In this document: piece after piece, positions 2,945 through 58,685 of the stretch
How the letters are laid out: each line of letters starts with the position of its first letter
Position numbering within the stretch: position 1 is the stretch's first letter
Assembly (NCBI RefSeq): GCF_000966265.1
Contig: NZ_LANF01000010.1
Location: forward strand, 1-64,000
From: Palaeococcus ferrophilus DSM 13482
Lineage (GTDB): Archaea; Methanobacteriota_B; Thermococci; Thermococcales; Thermococcaceae
Length of the DNA: 64,000 bases
Direction of reading: 5' to 3'
The notes under the pieces: generated by a model
Seen by the model: only the letters and a program-made list of their open reading frames with translations
Databases searched by the model: none
Told to the model about the DNA's origin: nothing
Made by a program: the position numbers and the translations under genes

Positions 2945-3967
2945 TCACTCGATCTTTGCCCCGCAGACCGGGCAGAACTTGGCCCCTTCAGGGACTATGT
3001 GACCGTTGGGGCAGCGCTTTATCTCGTGGCCGCAGTAGGGGCAGAACCTCGCTCCGGGTGGAATCGGCTTGCCGCAGTAGGGACATATCTCCTGCTGCTG
3101 GGCCTGGGCCGGAGTGGCCTGTTGTGGAGGCTGGTTCTGGTAGCCGGCCGGGGGAACTCCACCGCCGGCGTAGGGCTGGGCCGGTTGCGCCGGCTGGGCT
3201 GGGGCCTGCGGCTGCATCAGCTGTGGGATCAGAACCATTCCGGTCCCAACGGAAGCGCTCCCGCTCTTTCCGAGTTCCGCTGCCACCTGCTTCGCCGTGT
3301 CCATCTGCATAACGGTTTGAGCGTTGCCGGTCTGCATTATCCAGAAGAGCCTCTGGCGCCACTCATCTGTGGTGTTCACGCCCTCTATCTTCACATCGAC
3401 GAGTTCAAGGCCTAACCTTCTGAAGTCCTCCATGAGCTTGACCTTCACCTGCGTGCTGACCATGTCGAGGTTCTGGAAGAGGTCAACTATCGAGTAAGCG
3501 CTGAGGTGCTTCATCATGCCCTCGTTGAAGTATGCTCTGATGAACTTGGTGACGTCACCTGTATCGTAAAGGCTCTGGCCGCCGACCACCTCAGTCAGGA
3601 AGAGAACCGGATCGGCAACCTTGAACCAGTAGACGCCGTAGTACTTTACCGGGGCGAGCTCCCTCGTCTGCGTCTCCCCACCGTAGCGCCCCTGGAACTG
3701 CTTCATGCTCACGAAGATGACGGTTGCCTTGAAGGGGCTGTTGCTCCCCCCCACGAGCTTGTAGAGGAGGGGCAAATTCTGCGTCGTTAGCGTATGCCTC
3801 CCCGGCCCGAGAACGTCGTAGACCTTCCCATCGCGCATGAAGATTGCCACTTCGTACTCGTGGACTATCAGCTGAGCACCCCACTTTATGACCTCGTTGG
3901 GGTAGCGCCAGATTATCTCATCCTCTCCAGGGTTGACCCATTCGATTACCTGCACCATATCACTCAC
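2945..3967 (-). CDS. SPFH/band-7-like protein (COG4260 virion-core-protein type) with a P/Q-rich linker and a C-terminal triple zinc ribbon
   Basis: 340 aa. N-terminal about 230 aa resemble SPFH proteins of the COG4260 group. This is followed by a PQAPAQPAQPAQPYAGGGVPPAGYQNQPPQQATPAQAQQQ linker and then CPYCG..CPYCG..CPNGH..CPVCG (three CxxC pairs). Confidence 0.6.
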   Translation of the reverse strand: MSDMVQVIEWVNPGEDEIIWRYPNEVIKWGAQLIVHEYEVAIFMRDGKVYDVLGPGRHTLTTQNLPLLYKLVGGSNSPFKATVIFVSMKQFQGRYGGETQTRELAPVKYYGVYWFKVADPVLFLTEVVGGQSLYDTGDVTKFIRAYFNEGMMKHLSAYSIVDLFQNLDMVSTQVKVKLMEDFRRLGLELVDVKIEGVNTTDEWRQRLFWIMQTGNAQTVMQMDTAKQVAAELGKSGSASVGTGMVLIPQLMQPQAPAQPAQPAQPYAGGGVPPAGYQNQPPQQATPAQAQQQEICPYCGKPIPPGARFCPYCGHEIKRCPNGHIVPEGAKFCPVCGAKIE

Positions 3968-7622: not shown

Positions 7623-8437
7623 TCAATCCTCAAGCAGTGGGAACTCCGAGAGGAGAAGCGCCCTCTCCTTTCTGGAGAGTGCCTCAATCTCAACGAAGAG
7701 GATAACCGTGCTCCTGTGAATGTAGGCGTAGTCCTTCAGCGTGACCAGGAATTTGAACATGGCATCGAAGCCGTTCTCCAGCACCATGTACTCGAATCCA
7801 TCGAAGAGTATAACGGGCGAAACCTCGCTTTGATGCATGAAATCGAGGAGCAGGGACATCAGATAGGGCAGCCTCGTGGGGTTGACGCCTGTATCGTCAT
7901 CAACCTTCGTTATCCACAGTATGGGGGTCTTATTGAGGCCCAGTCTCTCCTGGAGCAGCTTTGGGGGGTTCTGCTTATTATAAGGCCCGGATGGCCCTTA
8001 ATGAGGAACAAAAACTCTGAATAGGCCCTTTCCCTGTCAAAAATGAGGTACAGCCCCGGACTGGGGAACTCGGTTTCATTTCCCTCGAACTCCACAACGG
8101 GTGCGAGGGTGTGGCGCTTCATGACGGAGGTTATCATCCCCGTCCACCCCACGATAAAAAGAAACACTGCAAATCCCATTAGAACGTTTCCCGCCCCGCT
8201 GAAAAGCATCACATCCCGGAGAGAAAGTCCTATGAGTCCCCAGTCATTGAGATCGAGCGGGAGGAACAGAAGCTTGGAGAATGCCGCTACGGCCCAGCCC
8301 ACGGTCATAACGTCATATGAGCGCCCGAGGGAGGGATACTTCGATACAAACCCCCGCCGATACCTGAGACTAACCACCAGCAGAACGAGGAGCATCAGCA
8401 TAAGGGATATTGAGGCCATGCCCGCAATTGGCCACAT
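7623..8437 (-). pseudogene. DUF835 membrane protein interrupted by a frameshift (N-terminal transmembrane part 7910..8437, C-terminal DUF835 part 7623..7859)
   Basis: The 175-aa ORF has 4 to 5 transmembrane helices and ends ...GLIISRTPQS. The adjacent 78-aa ORF, in another frame, carries the DUF835 core (FDGFEYMVLENGFDAMFKFLVTLKD). Together they reconstitute one full-length paralog of the 7111..7536 gene. Confidence 0.55.
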
Positions 8438-8635
8438 GGCGTTATATTTTTCAGGGCGTATCTATTTAAAAATTTTTACTAACGAGTCTTTATAGTTGCT
8501 TTTAGTTACACTAAAAAAACAACATTTACCTACCAAAATGGTGAAAGAGAAAGGGTTCACTTCAGGAACCCGGTCTTCTTTCTCGTTGCAAAATCTTTAT
8601 AAATAAAAAAATTACTGCCAATTAAAGGGATTAAT

Positions 8636-9424
8636 ATGGACCTACTGGAAGGAGTATTAATTTTTGCCTTTATTTGGGCGGGTCCCTCGGCCCTTCTGTC
8701 GGCGTGGCTTAGGACAAAATTTGCCAAAGAGAGCGCTTTAAGGGCATTCCTCGGCTCGTTGGTTATAATTACAGGTTTCATATTCGCCGTGATAGGAGTA
8801 AATGGGCTGTACTCAAAGTTTTACAGTGATGCGCTGATGGGAACTGTTCTGACAGTGTACTTTCCCCTCGCCGGAATCGTATGGGTTGGAATAGAACACC
8901 TACGAGGATACAACTTACCGCGCGCCCAGATCCTAGCAAAACTCAGCTTCCCCCTGCTGGGCGCGGTCATGGTGGGAGCGGGGGAGATATCATGGTTTAT
9001 TATGCTCCCCGTTTCATTTTTCCTTCTGGTTCTCACAATAACAATCCCAGAATTTTATTGGCCTATCGTAAGACTACTTCTTAAAAAAGTCCTGGGAATC
9101 CCCCTGAAGAAAAATCTCGGGGTTGAGCTCCTGCTAACGGTCGTTGGGTTTATTTCCGGAAGATTCGCCCGCTTTTTCCTGTTGAGAATTCTCCCAGGTC
9201 TAATGCTGTCCTCGGAAATTGGAAGTCTGCTAATATTTTCAATCATCCCGTATCTCATTATAGGCTTCTTGGATAGTCTCTTTAATTTCAAACTAAGATC
9301 AATGAATAGGGAGATAAGTTTGGAAAAGAGAGTGCTTCTCGTCACGGTATCCCTATACCTTTCGCTCGCGTTCGTAGGTTATATGTTCGTAGCATGGTAC
9401 ATCGGACTCAACGATGGAACATAA
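8636..9424 (+). CDS. Hypothetical polytopic membrane protein
   Basis: 262 aa with about 7 hydrophobic helices, preceded by a very AT-rich intergenic region (8440..8635). Confidence 0.5.
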   Translation: MDLLEGVLIFAFIWAGPSALLSAWLRTKFAKESALRAFLGSLVIITGFIFAVIGVNGLYSKFYSDALMGTVLTVYFPLAGIVWVGIEHLRGYNLPRAQILAKLSFPLLGAVMVGAGEISWFIMLPVSFFLLVLTITIPEFYWPIVRLLLKKVLGIPLKKNLGVELLLTVVGFISGRFARFFLLRILPGLMLSSEIGSLLIFSIIPYLIIGFLDSLFNFKLRSMNREISLEKRVLLVTVSLYLSLAFVGYMFVAWYIGLNDGT

Positions 9425-9449
9425 AAGCCAAAAAAGAGAAGAATAGGCT

Positions 9450-10637
9450 TCACTTCAAAAAGCCCGTCTTCTTTCCGAGGTCCTCGAAGGCGTCGAGCAC
9501 GTACTGGAGGTCCTCCTTGCTGTGGCCGGCGGAAGGTTCGAGCCTTATGCGGGCAGTTCCGAGCGGGACGGTTGGATAGACGATCGCCTGGGCGAAGATG
9601 TTGTACTCCTCGTATAAGCGCCTTGAGAACTCCTGGGCGCGCTTCTCGTCGTAGAGCATGACCGGCGTGATCGGGTGCTTGGTTCCTCCGAGGTCGTAGC
9701 CGAGCTCTCTCAAGCCGTTCTGGAGGAAGTGGGTGTTGTCCCAGAGCTTCCTGACGAGCTCGTCGCTCCTCTGGAGGATCTCAACGGCCGCTATAGCCGC
9801 TGCAACATCAGGCGGGTTGGGCGCGCTTGAGAAGAGGAACGGCCTGGCCCTCTGGCGGAGGTAGTCAATGGCCTCCTCTGGACCGGCAACGTAGCCGCCT
9901 ATGACACCGAAGGCCTTGCTTAGGGTTCCCATCTCGAAGTCAACCCTGTCGTGGAGGTTGAAGTGGTCAACGATACCTCTACCGCTGTCACCGAGGACAC
10001 CCTCACCGTGGGCGTCGTCAATGTAGATTATCGCGTCGTACTGTTCCGCTAACTCGGCCATCTCCGGGAGCTTCGCGAGGTCACCGTCCATCGAGAAGAC
10101 GCCATCACTCACGATGATTTTCTTCTTCTTGTCCTTGTTCTCCTTAAGCCTCTTCTCGAGGTCCTCCATGTCGAGGTGCTTGTAGATAACCTTTGGCGCC
10201 CCACTGAGGCGCATTCCGTCTATGATGCTCGCGTGGTTGAGCTCCTCACTTATGAAGACTCCATCCTCACCCTTCTTGAGGAGCGCGCTTATAGCTCCAA
10301 GGTTGGCGTTGTAGCCGCTCTGGAGAAGAATGGCCGCTTCGCGCTTCTTGAACTTGGCCAACTTCTCCTCGAGCTCCACGTGGAGCTCCATCGTTCCGGC
10401 GATAGTCCTGACGGCCCCCGCTCCAACACCGTAGTCGAGAATGGCCCTTATGGCCGCGTACCTTATCTCGGGATGGGCGGCCAAGCCGAGGTAGTTGTTC
10501 GAGCACATGTTGAGGACCTTCTTGCCGTCAACGACGACCCACGGGCCCTGGGCGCTTTCGAGCTTCCTTATGGTCACGTAGAGCCCCTTGTCCTTAAGCT
10601 CCTGGAGCTCTTCCCTAATCCAGTCCAGTTTCGCCAT
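9450..10637 (-). CDS. kbl: 2-amino-3-ketobutyrate CoA ligase (glycine C-acetyltransferase), PLP-dependent
   Basis: 395 aa. Class-II aminotransferase / alpha-oxoamine synthase motifs (GTLSKAFG lysine region, SNNYLGL). Start at MAKLDW with a GGTGG ribosome-binding site. Confidence 0.85.
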
Positions 10638-10772
10638 GAGAACCACCGGGTAAACTAACGTTTTATGAGTATAAAAGGATTAAGCCATACTCATTCATAG
10701 GAATCCCGGAAATTTTGAAAAAATGACAATCAGAACGCCGAATGAATAAATGATGGACAAAGAGAAAACCTG

Positions 10773-12638
10773 TCACTCGAGTTGGAACGGGGAGATATAA
10801 TCCCCGTACTTCTCCCTGGCCCCAAGGAGCCTCTGTCTTTCCTCCTCAAGGACATTGAACAGCTCCTCGGGAACGTCCTCAAGCTTCCTGTAGATTTCCT
10901 CGATTCTGTCTATCTTCGCTAACAGCTCCGGAACCCTTATCTTGAACTGCATCTCGTAGTCATCCTTAGTATACTCCTTGTTGAGAACCTCTTTGAAGAG
11001 CCTAGCGAGATCCTTGTACTTCGGAATGTAGCCAATTGGGGTTTCTATTGCATCAACGTCTCCGTGCACGCGAAGCTCCATCCACTTGAGCCAGACAGCT
11101 TTGTCGAGTTTGTGGTTGAGCCACTCGCCGTTCTCGCGGAGGAAGTAGTTAACGGCAAATATCTTCGGCGTCTTTCTAACGCGCTTCTCGAAGTCGAGGT
11201 AGTTCCTTATGTAGTCGCCGAGGTGAACGCTCATGAAGTCGAGGATGGCCATCGGGTTGAAGGCCCTAACCCCCTCCTTGCCGAGGGTTGCCGCGGTGGT
11301 CTCGCTCTCAAGCGAGGCGCCCATCGTTATAACACCGTGCTTCCAGTCGAACGCTTCTCTCACCGGCGGCCAGGTGTCGGCATCTCTGCCTCCGAATATC
11401 ATGCCGCCAATCTCAACGCCGCACGGGTTCTCAAGGGCCTCGAGGTCGGCGTTGGGGAAGTGTTCGAGCGAAACGGTAAAGCGCGCGTTCTTGTGGCTCG
11501 GCGGTATCTCGTTGCCCTCTTTGTCTTTTTTTCCGCGCCACCACTTTCCGCTGTGGTTCTCGCCCTCGTCGGGGATTGGAACACCCATGTCGTTCCAGTA
11601 GGGCTTTCCGTCCTTGACGAGGACGTTCGAAAAGATTATCTCGACGGGGGAGTGAAGAATCCCCCAGATTATGGGGTCGTCCTCCGGATTCACACCCTGA
11701 ATGATTCCAAAGACTCCCTTCTCGACGTTCGCCCCCCTCGCTACCCCGTTCACGGGAAGGGTGAACGTTAGGTCGTCGCCCACTATGTTCTCCCAGCTTA
11801 TCATGGCAGTTGAGGTCTTTCCGCACATGCTCGGGTAGGCTCCGGTGAAGTAGGTCTTCCTGCCGTGCGGGCCGTTAACCCTCATCAGAAACATGTGCTC
11901 GCTTAGCCAGCCCTCTTCAACCGCCCTCTTGATCGTAAGGCGGAATGCAAGCTTCTTCAAGCCAATCGTGTTGCCGCCGTACTGGGTGTTGACGGAGTAA
12001 ACGGTTTCATCCTCGAGGTCTATGTATATCCTCCTATCCTCGAGGTTCTTGCTTGTCTTCCTCTCGTCGAGCTCTCCAGCTGAGTGTACAAAGCGGAAGA
12101 ACCTCGCGCTCCTGCCCAAGCGCTTGAACTCCTCGTAGCCCTTTCTGTAGAGGATGAACTCTGAATGAGCCACATAAGCCGAATCGGTGAGCTGAACTGC
12201 GGGAATCGTGAATATCGAGTTTTTCGGCCCGAGAACGAAGAAGCAGACAAACAGTTCTTTGCCCTTCATAACGCCCCTCATCAGCTCGCGTATCTCCCTA
12301 AGGCCCTCATCGCGGTCCTTTGTGTTGATGTAGGGGAGCTTCTTCCCGCCGGGGGTGAGGATGGCGGTGTTCGCTTTATCCCTTGCCTGGTCGTAGTAGT
12401 TGTCGTAGTGAACGGTGTGGTTGAGGGTCTCGAGCATCTTTTCCTCCCCGTAGTAGAGGGCCTTCCACCTAACGTAGGCCTCGTCCTCTTCCCTATCGGT
12501 GCAGACGAAGACCCTATCTGGTTCTAACCACTCAATCCATTCGGCTAAAAAAGCGTGAAGCTCGGGATTGTCTATGGCCTTAACCTTCTCGAACTGCTCC
12601 GGTTCAAGGAGTTCCTCAAGCTTTTCGAGAGCGTTCAT
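10773..12638 (-). CDS. pckG: GTP-dependent phosphoenolpyruvate carboxykinase
   Basis: 621 aa. GTP-PEPCK signature regions (YPSMCGKTS kinase-1a, FGGRDADTWPP). Start at MNALEK behind a GGTGGTGA ribosome-binding site. Confidence 0.9.
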   Translation of the reverse strand: MNALEKLEELLEPEQFEKVKAIDNPELHAFLAEWIEWLEPDRVFVCTDREEDEAYVRWKALYYGEEKMLETLNHTVHYDNYYDQARDKANTAILTPGGKKLPYINTKDRDEGLREIRELMRGVMKGKELFVCFFVLGPKNSIFTIPAVQLTDSAYVAHSEFILYRKGYEEFKRLGRSARFFRFVHSAGELDERKTSKNLEDRRIYIDLEDETVYSVNTQYGGNTIGLKKLAFRLTIKRAVEEGWLSEHMFLMRVNGPHGRKTYFTGAYPSMCGKTSTAMISWENIVGDDLTFTLPVNGVARGANVEKGVFGIIQGVNPEDDPIIWGILHSPVEIIFSNVLVKDGKPYWNDMGVPIPDEGENHSGKWWRGKKDKEGNEIPPSHKNARFTVSLEHFPNADLEALENPCGVEIGGMIFGGRDADTWPPVREAFDWKHGVITMGASLESETTAATLGKEGVRAFNPMAILDFMSVHLGDYIRNYLDFEKRVRKTPKIFAVNYFLRENGEWLNHKLDKAVWLKWMELRVHGDVDAIETPIGYIPKYKDLARLFKEVLNKEYTKDDYEMQFKIRVPELLAKIDRIEEIYRKLEDVPEELFNVLEEERQRLLGAREKYGDYISPFQLE

Positions 12639-12804
12639 GATCACCACCACCTTGGGGTGGCAGTTTCCCCTTAAGAGGTTTATCCTTTTTTCGCCATAAT
12701 GACAGGAAAAAGGGAGTTATCGGCCATTTTGTCGTCAGAACATCAAACAAAAGCTGGATGAATTGTCATTGTGCCCCAAAACAAAATGGAGGATGAAAGA
12801 AAAG

Positions 12805-13854
12805 TCATTCTTTGGGGAAGAACACGACCTTACCCGTCTTCCCAGCGCGCATGAGCTCGAAGGCCTCCTCGAAGTCGTCGAAGCCCCTGTACTTGTGGGT
12901 GATTATGGGGTCGAGGTTGAGCTTGCCGCTCTGGATGAGCCTCGAGACGGTTATCCACGTGTTCCATATGTGCCTTCCAGTTATGCCGTGAACCTCGAGG
13001 GCCTTGAATATCACGAGGTTGTTGATGTCAAAGGTTACCTCCCTCGGGAAGAGGCCGAGGAGTGAAACCCTCCCCGCGGGGGTTACCGCCTTGAGGCCCT
13101 GCTCAAGTGCCTTCGGCGCCCCACTGAACTCGAGGAAGACGTCCACACCCTTGCCGTCGGTGACGTCCATAACGAACTTCACGGGGTCCTCCTCTATGGG
13201 GTTCACCACGTAGTCAGCACCCACCTTCTTGGCCAGTTCCCTCCTGAACTCGCTCGGCTCGCTGACGATGACCGGATAAGCGCCGCTCGCCTTGGCCACG
13301 GTTATTCCAAGGAGGCCCAGTGGGCCTGCTCCTGTTATTAGGGTGCTCCTTCCGGCAATCGGGCCCGAGAGAACGGTATCAACCGCGTTTCCAAGGGGCT
13401 CCTGGAGGGTCGCGTACTCGGGCTTCATGCCCTTGGGGTTCTTCCATGCGTTCTGGGCTGGCACTATGGCGTAGGTGGCGAAGACGCCGTCCATGTCCAC
13501 ACCGAATATCTTCGTGTTCTGGCAGACGTGGTACTGGCCGCGCTGGCACGCGTAGCACTTGCCGCACACTATATGGGTCTCGGCGCTTATGTAGTCACCA
13601 ACCTCGAGTGTGTCAACGCCAGGGCCGACTTCAACGACCTCTCCGGCAACCTCGTGCCCCATTATCTGGGGCGGCTTAATCCTGCTCTGGGCCCACTCGT
13701 TCCACTCGTAGATGTGGAGGTCGGTTCCGCAGATGCTGGTCGCGAGAACCCTTATGAGAACCTCCCCAGGCCCGGGCTTTGGAACGTCAACCTCAACAAG
13801 CTCGGCACCGTAAGCGGGCTTAGTCTTAACGATTGCGGGCATCTTCTCAGCCAT
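12805..13854 (-). CDS. tdh: L-threonine 3-dehydrogenase (zinc-dependent MDR family)
   Basis: 350 aa. [12 protein letters not shown] zinc-ADH motif, structural-zinc Cys cluster [24 protein letters not shown] Rossmann motif. Start at MAEKMP; the 47-codon upstream extension in the track is rejected. Confidence 0.9.
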
Positions 13855-13982
13855 AGTTATCATCTCCGTAAAACGATTACATGAGTATCTAAACGCAAGC
13901 CGATTTAAACTTTTTGTGAGGGAAAAGGTCATATACCCGGGACATGAAACCTCCACGGGAAGGGAATGGAGTGGTGGTGACG

Positions 13983-14690
13983 ATGGAGCTTTATTCATCC
14001 GAGAAGTTCAAGCCTGAAGAGCTCGCTCTCATAGGCAGGGCCATCGGAACAGTGGTTCACGGCACGCTGATAGTCGGGAGGGACGGGCGCTCGATATCCC
14101 GCTACGGTAAAAGGGCGATGACCGTGGGGATCCTCAGCGCCGGAACCACCGCCATGGACGTAAGACTCATCCCGCTTGTCGTGCTCAAGGATTTCGCCCA
14201 CATGAAGGGGCTCCCTCTGGCGTACGTTTACTACAACGACGGTGTTAGGGTGGAGATAAGCGGAATGGATCTGGACGAGGTCAAGGCCATCCTCGACACC
14301 AAGAACTTCGTCGAGGCACAGCCCAACGACATAGGCGCCACCGTGTACTACCCCAACGCCCTCGACGACTTTCTCCATGACCTGTTCAGGTATTACAAGT
14401 TCACCGTGGACGGGAAGGTTCTCGTGGACTGCATGAACACTCCAGCGGTACTCCTCTTCCCGAGGCTTAGCGAGCACTTCGGCTTTGAGGCGGACGTGAT
14501 AAACGACATGATGACGAGCTACGTGCCGCCCAAGCCAAAGGAGGTCTTTCTCCAGAGGCTCAAGAAGGGAGACTATCGCTTTGGGCTCCGCTTCAAGCCG
14601 GAGGGCATTATAGAGTTCTACGGGAGCGAGAAAAAGGTCTTCACGAGCACCTGGAAGCTCTTTGACTATCTAAAGTCTATTTTCGGGTGA
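13983..14690 (+). CDS. Conserved hypothetical protein
   Basis: 235 aa, GGTGGTGA ribosome-binding site before ATG 13983. Divergent from tdh. No domain recognised. Confidence 0.5.
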
Positions 14691-15497: not shown

Positions 15498-15575
15498 TGG
15501 TGGGGCCGCCGAGATTCGAACTCGGGTCACGGGCTCCCAAAGCCCGCAGGATAGACCAAGCTACCCCACGGCCCC
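15498..15575 (-). tRNA. tRNA-Pro (anticodon TGG), CCA encoded
   Basis: Minus-strand sequence GGGGCCGTGGGGTAGCTTGGTCTATCCTGCGGGCTTTGGGAGCCCGTGACCCGAGTTCGAATCTCGGCGGCCCCACCA. 7-bp acceptor stem, anticodon stem CGGGC/GCCCG with loop TTTGGGA, T-loop TTCGAAT. Confidence 0.85.
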
Positions 15576-15922
15576 ATGCGACAAACAACATACCACTTCA
15601 GCCATCACGGTGTTTGAGCCTTTCACGGCGCTCAGCGCCGTGTAATAATGCCCCATCTGTCCCCCCCCGTGTGGCCACACCGACCAGCATATAGTCATCA
15701 CCAAGCCCACCTTAAAAATCTTATGCTCCAATAAACCCGTTTAACAGACATAACAAACTTGGCCCCCCGGTCAGACCTCCTTGATAAGGGAAGTTGCCCC
15801 CTGGGTAAATCCACATGCTCGCTTTTTAGTAACCCCTTCAAGTGGGAGTAGTTATCAATTCAAAAAAACTTAATATTTTCAAGTCCCAATACAAAATAAT
15901 TGGTTTCCCTGGAGGGGAGGTT

Positions 15923-18900
15923 ATGAGCCAGAGAATATTTATCCTGCTGTTCCTTGTTACAATTCTATTTGGAAGCAATGTCCCGCGTTTAGGGATGGCT
16001 TCGCCGGAAGGGGGCGTACGCTACGTTATCACAATTGACAACACCAGTGAAGTCCTTACAGTTGAAGCGTACTTCTCAGGTGTTGATGACTCACAGCTAA
16101 CCTTCACACTTCGCGCGGCAGACTACTTTGAAAGGAAAGGAGTGCCATTAACCGTCACATTGCTGGAGACCGACGGTAATGTTTTGGAGAAGGAGAAGTA
16201 TGGATGGACAATACAACCAAATGGGGATTCCGTGTACCTGAAATACAAAATCGAGGGGTATACTCTGGAGAGAATAGCAGGGGTTCCAGGGGATATCAAA
16301 CATAGCGGAGTCAGTACCACAATGGCCATACTTAACATGGAGGCGATACTTGCCGTCCCGTACGACAAAAGGAGCTACCGGCTCATAGATGAATACTTAA
16401 GAAAACCTGCCACTGTAGAGTTCAATATACCCGATAACTGGGAGACTTTTGCTCCCTTCCACGTGAGCAGTTCGAACGTGATCAGAGTGAACATGGTTTA
16501 TGACATCCTGCGATCCTTCATTGAAATGGGAGAAGTTTCGATTAAGTACACCGGAGAATTTTATGGAGTTAAAACAAATTATGTGCTCTTCAAACGCCCC
16601 AACCTCCCGAGAAACGCCCCCAATAGGCCCGCTCAAATGCCGTATTTGTTTAGTGATATGGACAGGAGAAAAGAGGCGGAGAGATTAATGCGGGATACTG
16701 CACACCACTTCCACGTGCTCTCTCAACTTCTTGATTACGTCCCCGCCGAAGAGATAACAATTACGCCAGCGGCCAGCGGTTGGATCTATGGAAGAGGTTG
16801 GTGGCAGATAGATGATGGGTTTAGGCAGGATCAAATTGCCCATCATGTTGTCCACGAGTGGTGTCCTCCAGTAATTATCATATCACAGTCCCTGAATGGT
16901 GCGACATGGGTTTTCTGTGAGGGGCCTGCCGTGTATTATGGGTTCAAACTGGCATATAATTACACTCACGATAGGCGATTTTTGGGAAAATACTATGCGT
17001 TGTACCTTATGTACAAAAGAGGGATTCAAGAGAGGCTTAGTAGTGGGAATGATCCCCTCTACCAGCCTACGTTAAGTTATGGGTATACCCCACTACTGCT
17101 CTGGTATTTTGATGAAGAGATCAGGAAGCAAACCGATAACCAGAGCAGTCTGGATACGGTATTTCGGTATCTAGTCCGCACTCCTTACAAGGACATAAAC
17201 GTTGACGAGTTCATTACGGCCATCAAAGAGTCAACGGGGGTGGATTTTTCCGAATTCTATTACAACCATGCAATAGTTGATTTTAGCCTGCCGCTGGACG
17301 CCTACGCCGAGAAATACAGGGACGATTTCGCCTACTTGCTTGACTTTCAGAGAAAAAACAATGAGGCCCCAGATATCCTGTATTATGCGCTCCTCGAAAT
17401 GGAAGCAAAGTATGGAAACCCAGACTTGATGCCAATTCTGCCCCACTCTTATCTAAAAGGGGACTACCTAGTAACGGGCCCAAGGTATCTCAGCTTCATA
17501 AGGGAGCTAGCAAGCAATTATCCTTTAACGGAGTCCAAGTTCGTTGAGATATTGAACAAGTACACGGAGGGCAGATCCTCTGATTTCTTCGAGTTCTACA
17601 CCAAATACGGCCCACGGCCGCCCAGTATAGAGTCGCTCAACCTGTGGATTACCGGGGACTACAGCAGGCTCGTCCGGAAAAGCGTGTACATTGACACTCT
17701 GATCAATAGGCTGGCCCGAGTAGTGCCAAAAGACTCCGAGTACTACAATCTCCTCGCAACTGCAAATTCAAGTTATCTGAGGGGAATAGCGTTCCTCGAC
17801 ACCAATAAGTTCAACGAGGCGGAGGAAAAGTTTAACGAGAGTATCCGAGCCCTCGACGAGTTATATGCCTTAGATTTGGACAACGACGGTGCTAGAGACG
17901 TTTCAAAGTTGTTCCTTGGACTCAGCACAGCCTCCCATGACTCCGATGGGGACGGAACTCCCGATAAGGACGAGGTTGCAGGGAAGTTCTCGGTGGATGG
18001 TGTTGGGGACGAGTGGGAGGGTCATGGGGTGGCGAAAAGGCTTAGCGTAACGTGGGGTTCCAGGGAGTACGTTAAGGACGCGAGGCTCTACAGGGACGGC
18101 GCTTACATCTACGGAAAAATCGAGCTTTCAAAACCCGTTTACGATATCGAACGGTATGCCATCGTATTCCGTTTGGACTTTGACGGTGACTGGGGTACGT
18201 TTGATGATACGGTGTTCTTTCCATTGTTCACCGAGTTCTCCTTCTGGGGGACTGAATTCAATTATGGGGGGCCGTACTACACTTGGGGGTGCATGAACGA
18301 GTACGAGGTTATCCACAATAACACGATCGAGTTCAGGATCCCAGTAAAAACCGTCGAGGAGTACTACGACTATTTCTCATCATACATCCCCAACGTATCC
18401 TCTAGCATCCCTGCATCTATTGTGTTTGTCAAATTGGACGCCTATCTGAATACCGATTGGGGCAAAACCGCGGGGATGGATTTCAATTTGGAACTGAACC
18501 CAGCAACTCTTTCGATAACTTCAGACCCATCTGAAGCCGAAGTTTATGTCAATGGAGCTTATGGAGGGGTAACGCCGTTAACCCTAACCCTGGATCCGGG
18601 AACTTATCAGATAAAGCTCTCCAAGGAGGATTACGAGGACTACACAACCACAGTAACACTTAAGCCCGGTGAGAACAGGGAGCTCTCGGTGACTTTAACT
18701 CCTGCCTTTGGCCACTTGACGGTTTACTCCGACCCACCCGGAGCCGATGTTTATGTTGACGGGGCATTCGTTGGAGCAACACCGTTAGAGGATTATAAAC
18801 TCTCAACAGGGCAACACGAGTTGAAGGTCGTTAAGGAAGGCTACGAAGAATACTCCACGAACATTACGATAACAGCCGGAAAAACTTTCTCCACAACATC

Positions 18901-19168
18901 ACAACTAAAACCAATACCCACGACAACAACCACAACTTCCAAACCGATCCATACAACCACTACGACTACCACAACCCCTGCTCACACTTCAACTGCCACT
19001 GCACGAACCACTACCACCCCTCAAACAGTTTCATCTGAGGCCAGCAGCGTGCCCATGACAGATTCCAACCCAGAGCCAACAAACACCGAATCCACTGGCT
19101 CCATCTGTGGTCCGGGGGCCATCTTAAGTGCAGCAATACTGGCCCTAATGCTGAGAGGAAAGAAGTGA
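15923..19168 (+). CDS. Large secreted cell-surface protein with two PEGA domains, a Thr-rich linker and a C-terminal ICGPGA-TM-RGKK anchor
   Basis: 1081 aa from MSQRIF (GGAGGGGAGG ribosome-binding site); the track ORF is extended. Signal peptide. PEGA-like repeats (SDPSEAEVYVNGAYGGVTPL..., YSDPPGADVYVDGAFVGATPLEDY...). TTTTTSKPIHTTTTTTTTPAHTSTATARTTTTP linker. C-terminal hydrophobic segment plus basic tail. Confidence 0.75.
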   Translation: MSQRIFILLFLVTILFGSNVPRLGMASPEGGVRYVITIDNTSEVLTVEAYFSGVDDSQLTFTLRAADYFERKGVPLTVTLLETDGNVLEKEKYGWTIQPNGDSVYLKYKIEGYTLERIAGVPGDIKHSGVSTTMAILNMEAILAVPYDKRSYRLIDEYLRKPATVEFNIPDNWETFAPFHVSSSNVIRVNMVYDILRSFIEMGEVSIKYTGEFYGVKTNYVLFKRPNLPRNAPNRPAQMPYLFSDMDRRKEAERLMRDTAHHFHVLSQLLDYVPAEEITITPAASGWIYGRGWWQIDDGFRQDQIAHHVVHEWCPPVIIISQSLNGATWVFCEGPAVYYGFKLAYNYTHDRRFLGKYYALYLMYKRGIQERLSSGNDPLYQPTLSYGYTPLLLWYFDEEIRKQTDNQSSLDTVFRYLVRTPYKDINVDEFITAIKESTGVDFSEFYYNHAIVDFSLPLDAYAEKYRDDFAYLLDFQRKNNEAPDILYYALLEMEAKYGNPDLMPILPHSYLKGDYLVTGPRYLSFIRELASNYPLTESKFVEILNKYTEGRSSDFFEFYTKYGPRPPSIESLNLWITGDYSRLVRKSVYIDTLINRLARVVPKDSEYYNLLATANSSYLRGIAFLDTNKFNEAEEKFNESIRALDELYALDLDNDGARDVSKLFLGLSTASHDSDGDGTPDKDEVAGKFSVDGVGDEWEGHGVAKRLSVTWGSREYVKDARLYRDGAYIYGKIELSKPVYDIERYAIVFRLDFDGDWGTFDDTVFFPLFTEFSFWGTEFNYGGPYYTWGCMNEYEVIHNNTIEFRIPVKTVEEYYDYFSSYIPNVSSSIPASIVFVKLDAYLNTDWGKTAGMDFNLELNPATLSITSDPSEAEVYVNGAYGGVTPLTLTLDPGTYQIKLSKEDYEDYTTTVTLKPGENRELSVTLTPAFGHLTVYSDPPGADVYVDGAFVGATPLEDYKLSTGQHELKVVKEGYEEYSTNITITAGKTFSTTSQLKPIPTTTTTTSKPIHTTTTTTTTPAHTSTATARTTTTPQTVSSEASSVPMTDSNPEPTNTESTGSICGPGAILSAAILALMLRGKK
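18895..19025 (+). repeat. Low-complexity ACN-codon (Thr/Pro) tandem tract encoding the surface-protein linker
   Basis: Repeated acaaccac / accacc units. Confidence 0.5.
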
Positions 19169-19376: not shown

Positions 19377-19453
19377 TGGAGCCCCGGGCGGGGTTTGAAC
19401 CCGCGACCTGCCGCTTACCAAGCGGCCGCTCCACCAGGCTGAGCCACCGGGGC
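19377..19453 (-). tRNA. tRNA-Thr (anticodon GGT), CCA encoded
   Basis: Minus-strand GCCCCGGTGGCTCAGCCTGGTGGAGCGGCCGCTTGGTAAGCGGCAGGTCGCGGGTTCAAACCCCGCCCGGGGCTCCA. All four stems pair; anticodon loop TTGGTAA. Confidence 0.85.
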
Positions 19454-19557: not shown

Positions 19558-19634
19558 GCCGGGGTAGCCTAGCTCGGCAGGGCGGCGGACTCGTAATCCG
19601 CAGGTCCCGGGTTCAAATCCCGGTCCCGGCTCCA
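19558..19634 (+). tRNA. tRNA-Thr (anticodon CGT), CCA encoded
   Basis: GCCGGGGTAGCCTAGCTCGGCAGGGCGGCGGACTCGTAATCCGCAGGTCCCGGGTTCAAATCCCGGTCCCGGCTCCA. Anticodon stem GCGGA/TCCGC, loop CTCGTAA. Confidence 0.85.
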
Positions 19635-20593: not shown

Positions 20594-21271
20594 CTATATA
20601 TCGGCCGAACCCCTTGGTGATGAGTGGATTTTCACTGAAAACTTTTGGATGGTCTCAACGAGGAGTGGAGCGAGCTTTGATTCATCCGTTATCTCGGCCA
20701 GAAGCTTTCTCTGGATGAAAGTCCTCTTCCCGAGTCTGGGCAGGACTTCTTTCTCAAGCATGGCCTTCATCTCACGGGGCATTCCTGGGAGCACGAATAT
20801 CTTCACTCCCCCGTGTTCGATGTAGGCTCCGGGGGCGGCACCTTCCGTGTTCTCCAGCGGCTCGGCACCCTCCGGAAGGTAGGCCATTTTCCTCCTCCCC
20901 TTGTTGAGCTCGGGGTCATCTATCATACCCTTCTCATAGAGCGCCCTGTAGAAATCCCCAATCCGCTTGAGGCAGCCCTCGCACAGGACCAGCTCCCTCC
21001 CAACGGCGCGGGCGACCGCAGTCATCGTAACGTCGTCATGGGTCGGCCCCAGTCCACCGGAGATAATCAGGACCTCGGGCTTCCTTTCGAGGCTTTCCCT
21101 CACCGCTACCTCTATCTCATCAACATCGTCACCGACCGTGACCTTTCTCCTCACCCAGTAGCCCATCTCCGTCAGTTTCTTCGCTATGAAAGCGGAGTTG
21201 CTGTCCACGGTGTTGCCAGTGAGAAGCTCGTCCCCCACGGTAAGGATTTCTGCGTACACGTTCCCACCCAA
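20594..21271 (-). CDS. CinA-like / MoaB-MogA molybdopterin-binding-fold protein
   Basis: 225 aa. AEILTVGDELLTGNTVDSNSAFIAKKL and ISGGLGPTHDDVT are hallmarks of the CinA N-terminal (MoCF-binding) domain. Confidence 0.75.
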   Translation of the reverse strand: MGGNVYAEILTVGDELLTGNTVDSNSAFIAKKLTEMGYWVRRKVTVGDDVDEIEVAVRESLERKPEVLIISGGLGPTHDDVTMTAVARAVGRELVLCEGCLKRIGDFYRALYEKGMIDDPELNKGRRKMAYLPEGAEPLENTEGAAPGAYIEHGGVKIFVLPGMPREMKAMLEKEVLPRLGKRTFIQRKLLAEITDESKLAPLLVETIQKFSVKIHSSPRGSADI

Positions 21272-21554
21272 AGGGTTTTGGGAGTACCCTTTAATAAGCT
21301 AAGCGGTGGGGATGAGCAACATTATCGGGAGAGTTCAATCAGCAGTATTTCGGATTAGTGATGAACCGTGGAAAATATGCCTACAAATAGGCATGGTTTG
21401 GAGTTATCAGACAACATTTTTTTACTTTTTCTTTTCACCATAAAACACAAGTGTTATTAATTATGTTATTATTTTGTAACTAGTTTATTTTTTACTATCA
21501 AATAGAAAAATTTATAAATGCCATGAGTTTCTACGATTATGAACACTTAAAGAA

Positions 21555-22256
21555 GTGGTAGCAGTGAAGTGGAAACCATTAATAGGATTCCTCTTAGGGG
21601 TTATTATGGTTGGGATGAGCGCAGGGAGCGCCATGGCAATGCCCTTTCAGAAGGAACCGATAAAACCTCAACACAATATAGGATTGGGAAGTGTTATTAT
21701 GTCCTGGCTTGTGAGTTACGACAATAGCATAATATCGGAAAATAGAGAATATCATGGTAATATCGGGTATATGTGGCATTACAAAGTGAAACATGGGAAG
21801 AGGGGGAGATTGAGCATTTCTGTGTTTAAGTATGTTCCTCTCTTTGGGTATTCCACATATACCATACTCCCCGATATGACAGTATACAGCGACACCTTTG
21901 GAGGGAAAAACTTCAAGTTGAAGTCCATAAAGACCCACAGGGTGCCGGGCACTGGAATTCGATTCAAAACAATAGAAACAAGTTATTCTTCTTGGGTCAG
22001 TAGCGGAGGATGGTGGGGAATAGACCTAAAATTTGATGCGGGATATGGGAGACATGGAATAGTTACATTGGGGATGAGCAATCTCGAAAACTTTATTATA
22101 GCATTCACAGGTAAACTGGGAGGTGGAAAATGGGCGGATAAACTCGTTGATTTTGTGTCCAGGGGTAGTCTATCCTCTTTAGCAGATGCGCTTTCAGCAA
22201 TCATTGTTTTTGCCTCAGGTATAAACGTGGATGCCGTGTACTTTACGGAGGTGTGA
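21555..22256 (+). CDS. Secreted hypothetical protein (signal peptide, beta-rich) encoded in a low-GC island
   Basis: 233 aa. N-terminal KWKPLIGFLLGVIMVGMSAGSAMA signal peptide. Codon usage is markedly more AT-rich than the surrounding genes. Confidence 0.5.
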   Translation: MVAVKWKPLIGFLLGVIMVGMSAGSAMAMPFQKEPIKPQHNIGLGSVIMSWLVSYDNSIISENREYHGNIGYMWHYKVKHGKRGRLSISVFKYVPLFGYSTYTILPDMTVYSDTFGGKNFKLKSIKTHRVPGTGIRFKTIETSYSSWVSSGGWWGIDLKFDAGYGRHGIVTLGMSNLENFIIAFTGKLGGGKWADKLVDFVSRGSLSSLADALSAIIVFASGINVDAVYFTEV

Positions 22257-22259
22257 ACG

Positions 22260-22556
22260 TTGCGTTTTTTATATTTTCTTTTTGGGTTTTTACTTGCGTT
22301 TAATCCTTTTACTGGGATACCCACAATATTGATAGGTATCCTATTCGTTAAAATCGATACCAAGATCAAACTCGCGTATTCCCTTTTGGGGTTAGTTCTG
22401 GGAACTATGGCCGGAATATTCCTGTGGGGAGATTCATGGATCCTCGAACAACTAAAATGGGGGTACCAAGAACAGGGAGCATGGGGTTTTGTAGGGGGCA
22501 CACTAGTTCTCGTACTCCTGTCTCTTATAGTGGCCCGGACGCTTCACAGGAATTGA
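22260..22556 (+). CDS. Small membrane protein (3 transmembrane helices), low-GC island
   Basis: 98 aa, starts 4 nt after the upstream stop. Hydrophobic. Confidence 0.45.
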   Translation: MRFLYFLFGFLLAFNPFTGIPTILIGILFVKIDTKIKLAYSLLGLVLGTMAGIFLWGDSWILEQLKWGYQEQGAWGFVGGTLVLVLLSLIVARTLHRN

Positions 22557-22568
22557 GGGGGACTTGAT

Positions 22569-23063
22569 ATGAAACCACGCAATCGTAATGTTTTACATTT
22601 CATACTGGTGACAATAACATATGGAGTGATTGCGTACTCCAATCAGATCATAGGGTTTTACGCAATGCTTCGAATTATGGATGCGTCGATTTGGAAAATC
22701 CTAGTTGCCGTAATTGGAGTGGGAATTAGATTTCTGTTGCAGATTTCAACGGCAAGCATTTTTAGTTGGATAGTGTTGGGGCAGAAAATCGGCTCCAATG
22801 AGATTAAATCTGCGTTCGTTCCATTACTCGTAGCTGGAACCTTCTGTACATTCTTTAGGCTCATTGGGTATTTTGTTCTAACTAACGCATATTTAATTTC
22901 GTTAAGGAGTGCCTTAGAGAGCATTTTCATGACTACTGGCTGGTTTTTGTCATTTTATCTCCTGGGAAAAGAGATGTCATCAGATACTCTTACACTAATA
23001 AAGAAATATGCCTCAGTATTTGGCATTGGGTTGCTCATTTATTTTGTCTTCCCACCGGTTTGA
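22569..23063 (+). CDS. Membrane protein (4 to 5 transmembrane helices), low-GC island
   Basis: 164 aa, 13 nt after the upstream stop. AT-rich codons. Confidence 0.45.
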   Translation: MKPRNRNVLHFILVTITYGVIAYSNQIIGFYAMLRIMDASIWKILVAVIGVGIRFLLQISTASIFSWIVLGQKIGSNEIKSAFVPLLVAGTFCTFFRLIGYFVLTNAYLISLRSALESIFMTTGWFLSFYLLGKEMSSDTLTLIKKYASVFGIGLLIYFVFPPV

Positions 23064-23286
23064 CCCCATAAACCCAGAGAGGTGCATGAGAGGGAACTTG
23101 TTTGGTGGGAATTACGTGTGTGAATGACATGTGTCCAGTGTAGAGCTGTGGCAATGGAGGCTTACTAGCTTAAGGTGCCCTCATTTTTTATCGGCCTAAA
23201 AGCTTCGACCGGAACCTATGCTCCCGGCTCCCCAAAACCCTTTTAATGTATCACCGCCAATGAGTAAACATCCAGAGGTGATTGTG

Positions 23287-57950: not shown

Positions 57951-58039
57951 GGTGTGAAGTGATGCATGACGTCTTAAAAACCTTACAGGAGTATGTGAGA
58001 AAAGCTGTCTCCAAAAAGCAGGAAGAAAAGGAAAGGCCT

Positions 58040-58240
58040 TCAGGCCTTGATGGCGAGCTTAATGTCCTCGGCCTTGACGGTCTTCCTGCCGGCGTGCCTG
58101 GCGAAGGCGATGGCCTTGCCGGCAACCTCCATAGCGTAGTCCTCGAGGTACTCGGCGAGGACCTTGGCGGCATCCTCGCTGACCCTCTCGGCACCAGCCT
58201 TCCTTATAAGCCTGTCAATCGGGGCTATGGGAAGCTCCAT
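58040..58240 (-). CDS. Archaeal histone (HMf/HTk family)
   Basis: 66 aa: [66 protein letters not shown]. Confidence 0.95.
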
Positions 58241-58295
58241 ACCCTAACACCTCCATACAAAGTTTTTCATTCCTATTTAGGGCATTCAAGGTATA

Positions 58296-58322
58296 TAAGC
58301 TTTTTGGTAAATGGAGCCATTT
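58296..58322 (-). promoter_or_regulatory. Histone promoter: BRE/TATA (aaaaagcttatatacc on the minus strand)
   Basis: A-rich BRE followed by TTATATA about 55 to 60 nt upstream of the histone ATG. GGAGGTG ribosome-binding site before the start. Confidence 0.5.
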
Positions 58323-58685
58323 TAGGGCCCCAATGGCGCAGGAGGGGGTGGAGATATTATGGGCATAAAATCCAAAAAAGCATGTCGGGTCCTAAATCAG
58401 TGGGGGCCTTTTATAAAAAGTGCTGGGCAATAGGAGGGCTCCCCCAGATGAATGCCCAAATATGACTATCGGGAAACCACTGACCCCGGTATATTGCCTT
58501 CGCCATCACCAGAAGGCAGGGACATGAACGAAAGGTTTCCATAGAGAAACACCCAAAGAACACCCCTGGACAACCGCAAAAACCGGGCACTAACAGCCCT
58601 GCTGGAGGTAAAAGAGGGCACGTAAGCGAAGCAAAAAAGAGCATTTAACGGATAGTTCACAGGATCCCACAATAGTTGGAGACGT

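Follow-up and report, generated by a model that had tools for sequence, protein, structure and literature searches.

An AT-rich three-gene island between cinA and malP

According to our analysis, the 64,000-nucleotide stretch of the Palaeococcus ferrophilus DSM 13482 genome studied here (contig NZ_LANF01000010.1, positions 1 to 64,000; hereafter the window) carries, between a cinA-like gene and malP, a horizontally acquired, self-contained operon that was inserted between the divergent promoters of these two genes in the P. ferrophilus lineage. The operon consists of gene A, encoding a secreted protein, and genes B and C, encoding two small membrane proteins. A first-pass annotation of the same DNA, which supposed a Thermococcus host instead of P. 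ferrophilus, had singled out the region as a low-GC island with three open reading frames (ORFs) of 233, 98, and 164 amino acids (aa) for one secreted and two membrane proteins with no recognizable domains, and in these respects its description stands. The three ORFs all lie on the plus strand, at 21555 to 22256 (233 aa when read from the first GTG), 22260 to 22556 (98 aa), and 22569 to 23063 (164 aa). The annotated start of gene A is the GTG at 21564, which gives a protein of 230 aa corresponding exactly to WP_048149165.1. The gaps amount to 3 nucleotides (nt) between A and B and 12 nt between B and C, not to 4 and 13 nt as previously given, and the left edge of the region, formerly read as the stop of the cinA-like gene, is its start: this gene is on the minus strand and 21271/21272 is its 5' end. 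The true cinA start is probably the GTG at 21259, as in L017, the related cassette-free locus described below. The malP gene starts at ATG 23287 and encodes 831 aa, exactly WP_048149170.1, the mechanically called ORF start at 23218 being too long. Genes A, B, and C share one reading frame, with A and B separated only by a stop codon and one further codon; the shared frame is probably a matter of chance (1 in 9).

The features of the locus are the following.

21270 to 21282, no strand: left arm AAAGGGTTTTGGG of a perfect 13-nt inverted repeat, in the 5' untranslated region of cinA
21288 to 21307, minus strand: promoter block of the host cinA, ccctttaataagctaagcgg, forming the left flank; it matches L017 at 18/20 positions, in collinearity with the start of cinA
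21308 to 23239, no strand: inserted AT-rich segment of about 1.93 kb, with junctions 21307/21308 and 23239/23240 deduced from the L017 alignments
21503 to 21522, plus strand: the cassette's own archaeal promoter, with B recognition element (BRE) and TATA box, tAGAAAAATTTATAAATGcc, predicted from the consensus
21552 to 21559, plus strand: Shine-Dalgarno-like GAAGTGGT before GTG 21564, aligning with the conserved GGAGGTGA of other cassettes
21564 to 22256, plus strand: gene A, 230-aa exported protein WP_048149165.1 with a Sec-type leader and a conserved C-terminal strand SGxNxDxxxFxEV
21564 to 21638, plus strand: leader peptide of A, MKWKPLIGFLLGVIMVGMSAGSAMA, near-identical in all cassette subtypes, with predicted cleavage after AxA
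22260 to 22556, plus strand: gene B, 98-aa membrane protein with about three transmembrane (TM) segments, from hydropathy analysis and alignment
22569 to 23063, plus strand: gene C, 164-aa membrane protein with about five TM helices, present in every cassette subtype
23184 to 23189, plus strand: oligo-T run read from the sequence, a possible archaeal terminator of the cassette
23231 to 23243, no strand: right arm CCCAAAACCCTTT of the inverted repeat, 9 nt in the island and 4 nt in the host
23240 to 23265, plus strand: host malP promoter block cttttaatgtatcaccgccaatgagt, right flank, 25/26 identical to L017

The GC content, calculated in 300-nt windows, falls from 0.55 to 0.60 in the cinA-like gene to 0.33 to 0.44 across approximately 21300 to 23100 and rises again within malP. 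Over 21308 to 23240 it is 0.411, compared with 0.552 ± 0.027 for windows of equal size in the rest of the 64 kb (z = -5.1), the lowest of which reaches 0.46. The GC content at third codon positions (GC3) is 0.444 for A, 0.424 for B, and 0.412 for C, which are the bottom three values among 54 non-overlapping ORFs (median, 0.725), while the adjoining cinA, eIF-2B-like, and malP genes have a GC3 of 0.70 to 0.79. Such a deviation of composition and codon usage from the host is characteristic of horizontally acquired genomic islands. The rest of the window is not all GC-rich, as had been claimed, since it includes other moderately GC-poor stretches at 15.6 to 19.3 kb (0.46 to 0.49) and at 1 to 1000 and 8001 to 9000 (about 0.47 to 0.48).

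Insertion between two divergent promoters

A contig scan with cinA gave, among the matches listed, one informative empty site, that of L017, a Thermococci metagenome-assembled genome (MAG; QMUB01000143.1) of a fairly distant relative whose cinA is 71% identical at the amino acid level. In L017, malP and cinA are divergent, lie about 80 bp apart, and have no cassette between them. According to local alignments, the promoter blocks of cinA and malP are 4 nt apart in L017 versus 1,932 nt in the window, which delimits the island to 21308 to 23239. The insertion point falls between the two divergent TATA boxes, and L017 therefore represents an empty site with conserved flanks, as known for horizontally acquired genomic islands. 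Most of the other Thermococcus MAGs among the matches listed do not have malP adjoining cinA. P. ferrophilus itself was not among these matches, nor was any close relative from Palaeococcus. Just 3' of the malP TATA box there is a TATCAC element, also kept in L017, which resembles a half-site of the Thermococcales glycolytic motif.

The island holds A, B, and C only, with no integrase and no tRNA at the junction, the nearest tRNAs being 1.7 kb off; its non-coding flanks have no homology to other loci, and an Rfam scan gave no match within it. A tRNA-targeted integrative element was ruled out given that neither an integrase nor att sites are present. Flanking direct repeats, for which 21272 to 21554 and 23064 to 23286 had been proposed as the places to look, were not found at the island edges; what the region has is one perfect 13-nt inverted repeat with its arms near both edges. 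An inverted repeat at least this long arose anywhere in the region in only 4% of Markov simulations, and arms near both junctions arose in 0 of 2,000. The arms are offset from the junctions deduced from the L017 empty site, a metagenome scan for the corresponding empty palindrome (arms 15 to 45 nt apart) returned two contigs, both unrelated, and the other cassettes do not share terminal inverted repeats. We regard the nature of the segment as an insertion and as a cassette as highly probable.

The cassette promoter and the three encoded proteins

Upstream of gene A, AGAAAAATTTATAAATG (21503 to 21522) is followed by a GGTG-type ribosome-binding site. The block GAAAAAnTTTTTAAAGG, located about 45 nt before the start, and the subsequent GGAGGTGA are kept in 8/8 aligned cassettes, which indicates that the island brings its own promoter, the function being assigned by agreement with the BRE/TATA consensus. 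All three genes are under purifying selection, as the ratio of nonsynonymous to synonymous substitution rates (dN/dS) is approximately 0.04 to 0.14 for A and 0.14 to 0.2 for B and C, with B alone at about 0.14 to 0.18; with values of this order, A, B, and C are to be considered real genes.

In the AlphaFold2 model (predicted local distance difference test [pLDDT] score, 75.5; predicted template modeling score [pTM], 0.72), protein A consists of the Sec leader, a Pro-rich linker, ten beta-strands, three helices, and a last strand. Its fold is predicted to be a generic immunoglobulin (Ig)-like beta-sandwich, closest to adhesins, pilins, and cohesins, although the Foldseek matches are to a very common fold and have low TM-scores of 0.2 to 0.35. 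Protein A contains no Cys and terminates in SGINVDAVYFTEV; in its alignment His77, His164, and Asp223 are invariant, Glu229 is near-invariant, and there is no invariant Lys. B is the least conserved part of the cassette and diverges in step with the subtype of A. C, the more conserved partner according to the alignments, is modeled by AlphaFold2 as helices only (pLDDT, 82). Searches of A, B, C, an additional gene D found in other cassettes (see below), and neighboring small ORFs against Pfam, NCBIfam, PHROGs, and PADLOC gave nothing above noise; A had no Pfam match at an E value of ≤1, and a PDB sequence-profile search with A gave 0 matches at an E value of ≤10. A TasA/camelysin-type protein and a type IV pilin were considered for A and rejected, in that no family match was found and the signal peptide is of the ordinary Sec type. 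We infer export and cleavage for A and, for B and C, a function as its cognate partners in the membrane.

Distribution, chromosomal sites, and age of the cassette family

Homologues of A form 9 clusters among 5.8 billion proteins, and a profile search with A across 1.84 billion representatives gave 14 matches, several of them to the leader only. The corresponding search with C retrieved 18 proteins, of which every named one belongs to Thermococcus or P. ferrophilus. The named carriers beside P. ferrophilus are all Thermococcus, namely, Thermococcus sp. 21S7, T. henrietii, Thermococcus sp. P6, T. thioreducens, T. indicus, and T. piezophilus, further joined by a T. paralvinellae MAG, Thermococcus sp. 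2319x1, JdF3, and T. celer. The family is restricted to the Thermococcaceae, patchy, mobile, polymorphic, and uncharacterized. Most Thermococcales proteomes are devoid of the cassette, which T. kodakarensis lacks as well, and conserved synteny across all Thermococcales, which would have spoken for an old locus, was not seen. All loci examined keep the order A-B-C, including those in which the identity of A falls to 27 to 33%. Together with the patchy distribution, the occupation of at least five chromosomal sites, listed below, is in keeping with a genomic island.

P. ferrophilus: between cinA and malP
21S7, P6, SRR13298158, and T. piezophilus: downstream of yjeF/DUF835
T. thioreducens and T. 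indicus: behind a GNAT gene, in a group of genes for metal resistance
L090 (Thermococcus sp. JALVUC010000025.1), 8001 to 9495: beside PolD/cdc6, in the origin region
2319x1: another site, distinct from those of the other hosts

In L090 the divergent A-B-C set lies directly beside the genes for PolD DP2/DP1 and cdc6/orc1, the canonical replication-origin neighborhood of Thermococcales. What we call type II cassettes, found in 21S7, T. thioreducens, and T. indicus, contain an extra fourth membrane gene, D, of about 128 aa, which the window does not have. In nearly every host A, B, and C are AT-rich with respect to host genes, with a GC3 of 0.33 to 0.54 versus 0.57 to 0.79 for most host genes; the contrast is milder in L090 (0.44 to 0.53) and weakest in AT-richer loci such as that of T. 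piezophilus.

Between 2319x1 and T. thioreducens, the DNA is 88% identical over precisely the promoter, A, B, and C (1,576 bp), with nothing shared beyond, which defines the bounds of the mobile unit and shows a fairly recent transfer; the synonymous divergence (dS) of this pair is 0.16 to 0.65. The situation differs for the P. ferrophilus copy, the closest relative of which, in Thermococcus sp. 21S7, is 75% identical at the DNA level with saturated synonymous sites (dS of about 2), and no donor lineage with a near-identical copy was found. The first-pass annotation had argued from composition for a recent horizontal acquisition. The horizontal part of this claim is borne out by the empty site, the number of chromosomal sites, the patchy distribution, and the deviant codons, whereas "recent" is not demonstrated at such a distance from the closest copy, and the lack of amelioration is the sole argument left for it.

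Indications of polymorphism at the cassette loci

The promoter, the leader, and the linker PIQKEPIKPQ are near-identical among subtypes, while the mature A proteins are only 27 to 50% identical. Furthermore, the leader KWKPLFAVLLGLLMVGVTAGSAxA was found near-identical on at least four unrelated mature proteins (database matches P0018 to P0022), and this sequence similarity suggests that Thermococcus may possess a wider set of secreted proteins sharing the leader. In 21S7 (positions 8000 to 14400 of locus L006), two divergent complete A-B-C cassettes occur in tandem, accompanied by a third leader-bearing gene for an unrelated 304-aa protein, whose leader is apparently frameshifted with respect to the called ORF, and by three copies of the gene D, which has four TM segments, a conserved motif CSAYRDSEYC, and host-like GC. 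In T. piezophilus (L089, 9433 to 10160), the leader MKWKPLMAVLIGLLMVGV is fused to a type II B-like ORF with a truncated C after it, which makes up a second, decayed cassette in addition to one other.

The most clear-cut example is L094, a Logan contig (ERR15087768, 1 to 4830) encoding a protein identical to A3L02_02150 of T. celer. In this locus, which is syntenic with locus L088, the place of A is taken by a Cys-rich small ORF, a radical S-adenosylmethionine (rSAM)/SPASM maturase, and a DrrAB-type ABC-2 exporter. Only the last 18 nt of A are left, followed by an intact B-C that is 97% identical to that of Thermococcus sp. P6; the ABC-2 gene ends with TAA at 3432 to 3434, and the homology to P6, i.e., the A remnant, starts at 3444, 10 nt after the stop codon. 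A type II C remnant comes after B-C, and downstream the locus is again syntenic with L088. A subtilosin-like cluster has been reported in T. celer (bioRxiv 10.64898/2026.07.27.741052), and the rSAM/ABC cluster of L094 is probably the same one. The L094 arrangement implies that B-C can persist without A, directly behind a cluster of the antimicrobial-peptide type.

Possible roles of the cassette

The most likely role of the cassette, to which we assign a probability of roughly 35 to 40%, would be that of a conflict-type effector with an immunity or handling module. According to this proposal, A would be exported by Sec, its leader would be cleaved after AGSAMA, and the mature protein would be directed, outside the cell, against related archaea as effector or ligand. 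Produced from the same transcript, B and C would be its cognate partners, protecting the producer in an immunity-like manner, handling A at the membrane, or both. New variants would arise by swapping of cargo behind the constant promoter and leader and by moves of the whole cassette between genomes. A constant N-terminal part joined to a variable cargo and a cognate downstream gene is what the loci display, and it is the layout of polymorphic toxin and bacteriocin-immunity systems. The tandem divergent and decayed copies, the constant leader with variable cargo, the covariation of B with A, and the L094 arrangement give circumstantial support both to this proposal and to a surface role. The first-pass annotation had suggested a toxin/immunity or bacteriocin-like cassette or, alternatively, a cell-surface accessory module; both remain the leading readings, with the absence of a toxin domain and the predicted adhesin/pilin-like fold as points against a toxin.

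Several observations weigh against an effector. No toxin, nuclease, pore-forming, or peptidase domain was found in A with Pfam, NCBIfam, PADLOC, or the PDB sequence search, and the generic Ig-like sandwich predicted by the model would suit binding better than killing. Within a subtype, A is under strong purifying, not diversifying, selection. In the genomes examined, intact B-C always occurs with A except in L094, which leaves no clear orphan-immunity arrays. L094 itself may reflect functional coupling or a mere recombination scar in a hot spot, and a T5 run between the ABC-2 stop codon and B makes cotranscription uncertain there.

A more far-reaching version of the effector proposal, which we hold to be doubtful, is that the family would constitute an undescribed weapon/immunity system of the Thermococcaceae, of a "thermococcin" type. 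The promoter and leader would then serve as a secretion and recombination handle for swapped, unrelated cargos, B-C would be a portable immunity or handling unit for different weapons, including the sactipeptide-like rSAM/ABC cluster, and the AT-richness would stem from an unsampled AT-rich gene pool or from selection for AT-rich DNA.

The next most likely role, if only tentatively proposed, is surface recognition or adhesion, with A held on the envelope by its C-terminal helical region and terminal strand via B and C. As a ligand that varies, A would serve in adhesion between cells, in self/non-self recognition, or in the choice of mates, which corresponds to the third of the hypotheses put forward for the VARTIG loci compared below. 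The invariant SGxNxDxxxFxEV and the hydrophobic helix near the C terminus could together provide a docking element, A, B, and C are in every case inherited together, and in the analogous VARTIG loci Ig proteins are paired with subtype-specific membrane proteins. However, A is devoid of a transmembrane anchor, a signal of the sortase or archaeosortase type, and assembly machinery, it does not conserve the isopeptide triad of pilins, B-C persists without A beside the rSAM/ABC exporter cluster, and the structural matches on which the adhesin likeness depends are the low-scoring ones to a very common fold given above.

The cassette could also be moron cargo of a virus, plasmid, or vesicle-borne element, acting, e.g., in superinfection exclusion or receptor masking. 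An AT-rich composition typical of acquired DNA in Thermococcales, variable insertion sites, the possession of its own promoter, and a moron-like content of small membrane proteins would all agree with such an origin. This explanation is nevertheless unlikely, given that no A homologue was found in IMG/VR, among INPHARED phages, or among PLSDB plasmids, no C homologue was found among PLSDB plasmids, PHROGs gave nothing significant, and at the loci examined we detected no integrase, att repeats, junction tRNA, or adjoining viral or plasmid genes.

A role in envelope metal handling, by analogy with YcnI/CopC, would make A an extracytoplasmic beta-sandwich metallochaperone (binding through His77/His164/Asp223 and perhaps Glu229) that works with B and C. 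The two invariant His, the invariant Asp, and the near-invariant Glu of A would fit this role, as would the position of the T. thioreducens and T. indicus cassettes among genes for ArsR, P-type ATPase, HMA, and DUF302 proteins. Such a context is, however, absent in P. ferrophilus, 21S7, P6, L090, and 2319x1, and polymorphic, tandem, and decaying cassettes are atypical of homeostasis genes, so that we consider this role very improbable.

Finally, the idea of an old resident locus, present in the ancestor of Thermococcales, since lost from most lineages, and AT-rich through causes other than transfer, is largely refuted: although A is 76 to 85% identical between P. ferrophilus and Thermococcus, a core-gene-like depth comparable with cinA, eIF-2B, and malP (70 to 82%), with saturated synonymous sites and a yjeF/DUF835 site common to 21S7, P6, and T. 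piezophilus, the cassettes occupy at least five different sites and are missing from most Thermococcales proteomes, the L017 empty site keeps both promoters precisely, the 88% identity of two distantly placed Thermococcus species is confined to the cassette, and a GC3 of about 0.4 against about 0.72 for host genes reveals no amelioration.

Other features of the window

A second compositionally atypical surface-protein gene lies at 15842 to 19168 on the plus strand and encodes a secreted protein of 1,108 aa with two PEGA domains (Pfam E value, 6.5e-43), a stalk rich in Thr, and a TM anchor at the C terminus. With a GC content of 0.479 and a GC3 of 0.548, the gene lies clearly under the window median, and it is flanked by tRNA-Pro (15498 to 15575, minus strand) and tRNA-Thr (19377 to 19453, minus strand). 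The latter and another tRNA-Thr (19558 to 19634, plus strand) are divergent, about 100 nt apart, and located just upstream of the eIF-2B-like gene; the two have the anticodons GGT and CGT. Two further plus-strand ORFs, 8636 to 9424 and 57959 to 58465, have a low GC3 (0.506 and 0.521, respectively) and no Pfam match and may be other acquired genes.

Comparison with known systems

Competition and recognition among hyperthermophilic archaea are poorly understood. The cassette is small and sharply bounded and varies naturally (cargos differ, A can be lost, and copies decay), which makes it a tractable test case, in genetically accessible Thermococcales, for distinguishing effector/immunity from recognition functions. 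It is also a clean example of DNA inserted precisely between two divergent promoters of an archaeon with no recombinase, and of acquired AT-rich DNA that persists at growth temperatures above 80°C. If A were only a surface accessory protein, the locus would be an ordinary island of the accessory genome.

Comparable systems include the bacterial and archaeal polymorphic toxin systems (PTS), sulfolobicin sulABC, and the immunity proteins of pore-forming colicins. Like polymorphic toxin and bacteriocin-immunity cassettes, the loci described here combine a constant N-terminal export part with variable cargo and covarying small polytopic membrane proteins directly downstream, occur in tandem divergent copies and decayed remnants, and are horizontally mobile; the B-C pair beside the rSAM/ABC-exporter peptide cluster adds to this likeness. 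Unlike polymorphic toxin systems, they have no detectable toxin domain and an adhesin-like fold, and their constant part is a Sec leader with a short linker instead of a trafficking domain. The Ig-like domains of Gram-positive pilins and adhesins (CnaB/DEv-IgG type) and the cohesin domains are only 4 to 18% identical to A. In contrast to isopeptide-bonded pilins, A does not conserve the Lys-Asn/Asp-Glu triad and has no LPXTG-like motif, and the cassettes contain no sortase-like gene. The fold that A shares with pilins, adhesins, and cohesins is so common that the match allows no functional inference.

As to composition, most AT-rich genes of T. kodakarensis have been reported to carry horizontal gene transfer (HGT) signatures (bioRxiv 10.64898/2025.12.08.692931). 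The island resembles those regions as a local AT-rich block with HGT signatures in a GC-richer hyperthermophile genome. It differs in organism, genes, and size (only 1.9 kb), and the binding of reverse gyrase and RPA is no part of the comparison.

The closest parallel concerns VARTIG, the only described Thermococcales-specific hypervariable surface module. The VARTIG loci are restricted to Thermococcales, recently gained, and hypervariable; their first gene is for a large, multi-Ig secreted protein and the next ones for small membrane proteins that go with the subtype of the Ig protein, and neither an integrase nor an identifiable toxin is encoded in them (Makarova et al. 2021, PMC8416519). 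The functions proposed for them are conflict in the manner of PTS, innate immunity, and self/non-self recognition, and archaeal PTS provide a precedent beside VARTIG (PMC8416519). The cassettes are likewise lineage-restricted and patchy, have a secreted Ig-fold protein first and small membrane proteins tracking its subtype, and are without integrase or toxin, so the same three functional hypotheses apply. However, they are far smaller, with one promoter and three genes in 1.6 kb, and in place of the large multi-Ig arCOG07710 protein (compared here by its description) their first gene encodes a single-domain protein of 230 aa. This protein has no CARDB/E-set sequence match (no Pfam hit at an E value of ≤1), no conserved Cys pair, and no C-terminal D[ND]NxxxG[GD] motif, and what stays constant in the cassette is the leader with the promoter instead of a large protein's N-terminal bulk. 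In the accessible portion of the supplementary tables of PMC8416519 no cassette accession appears, and the published VARTIG loci of T. thioreducens and P6 lie at other coordinates than their cassettes. Membership in VARTIG was rejected, since the motifs and the architecture are absent. The island in itself is ordinary. Its cassette family adds an undescribed, compact, and tractable variant to the hypervariable theme of a secreted Ig protein with membrane partners in Thermococcales.

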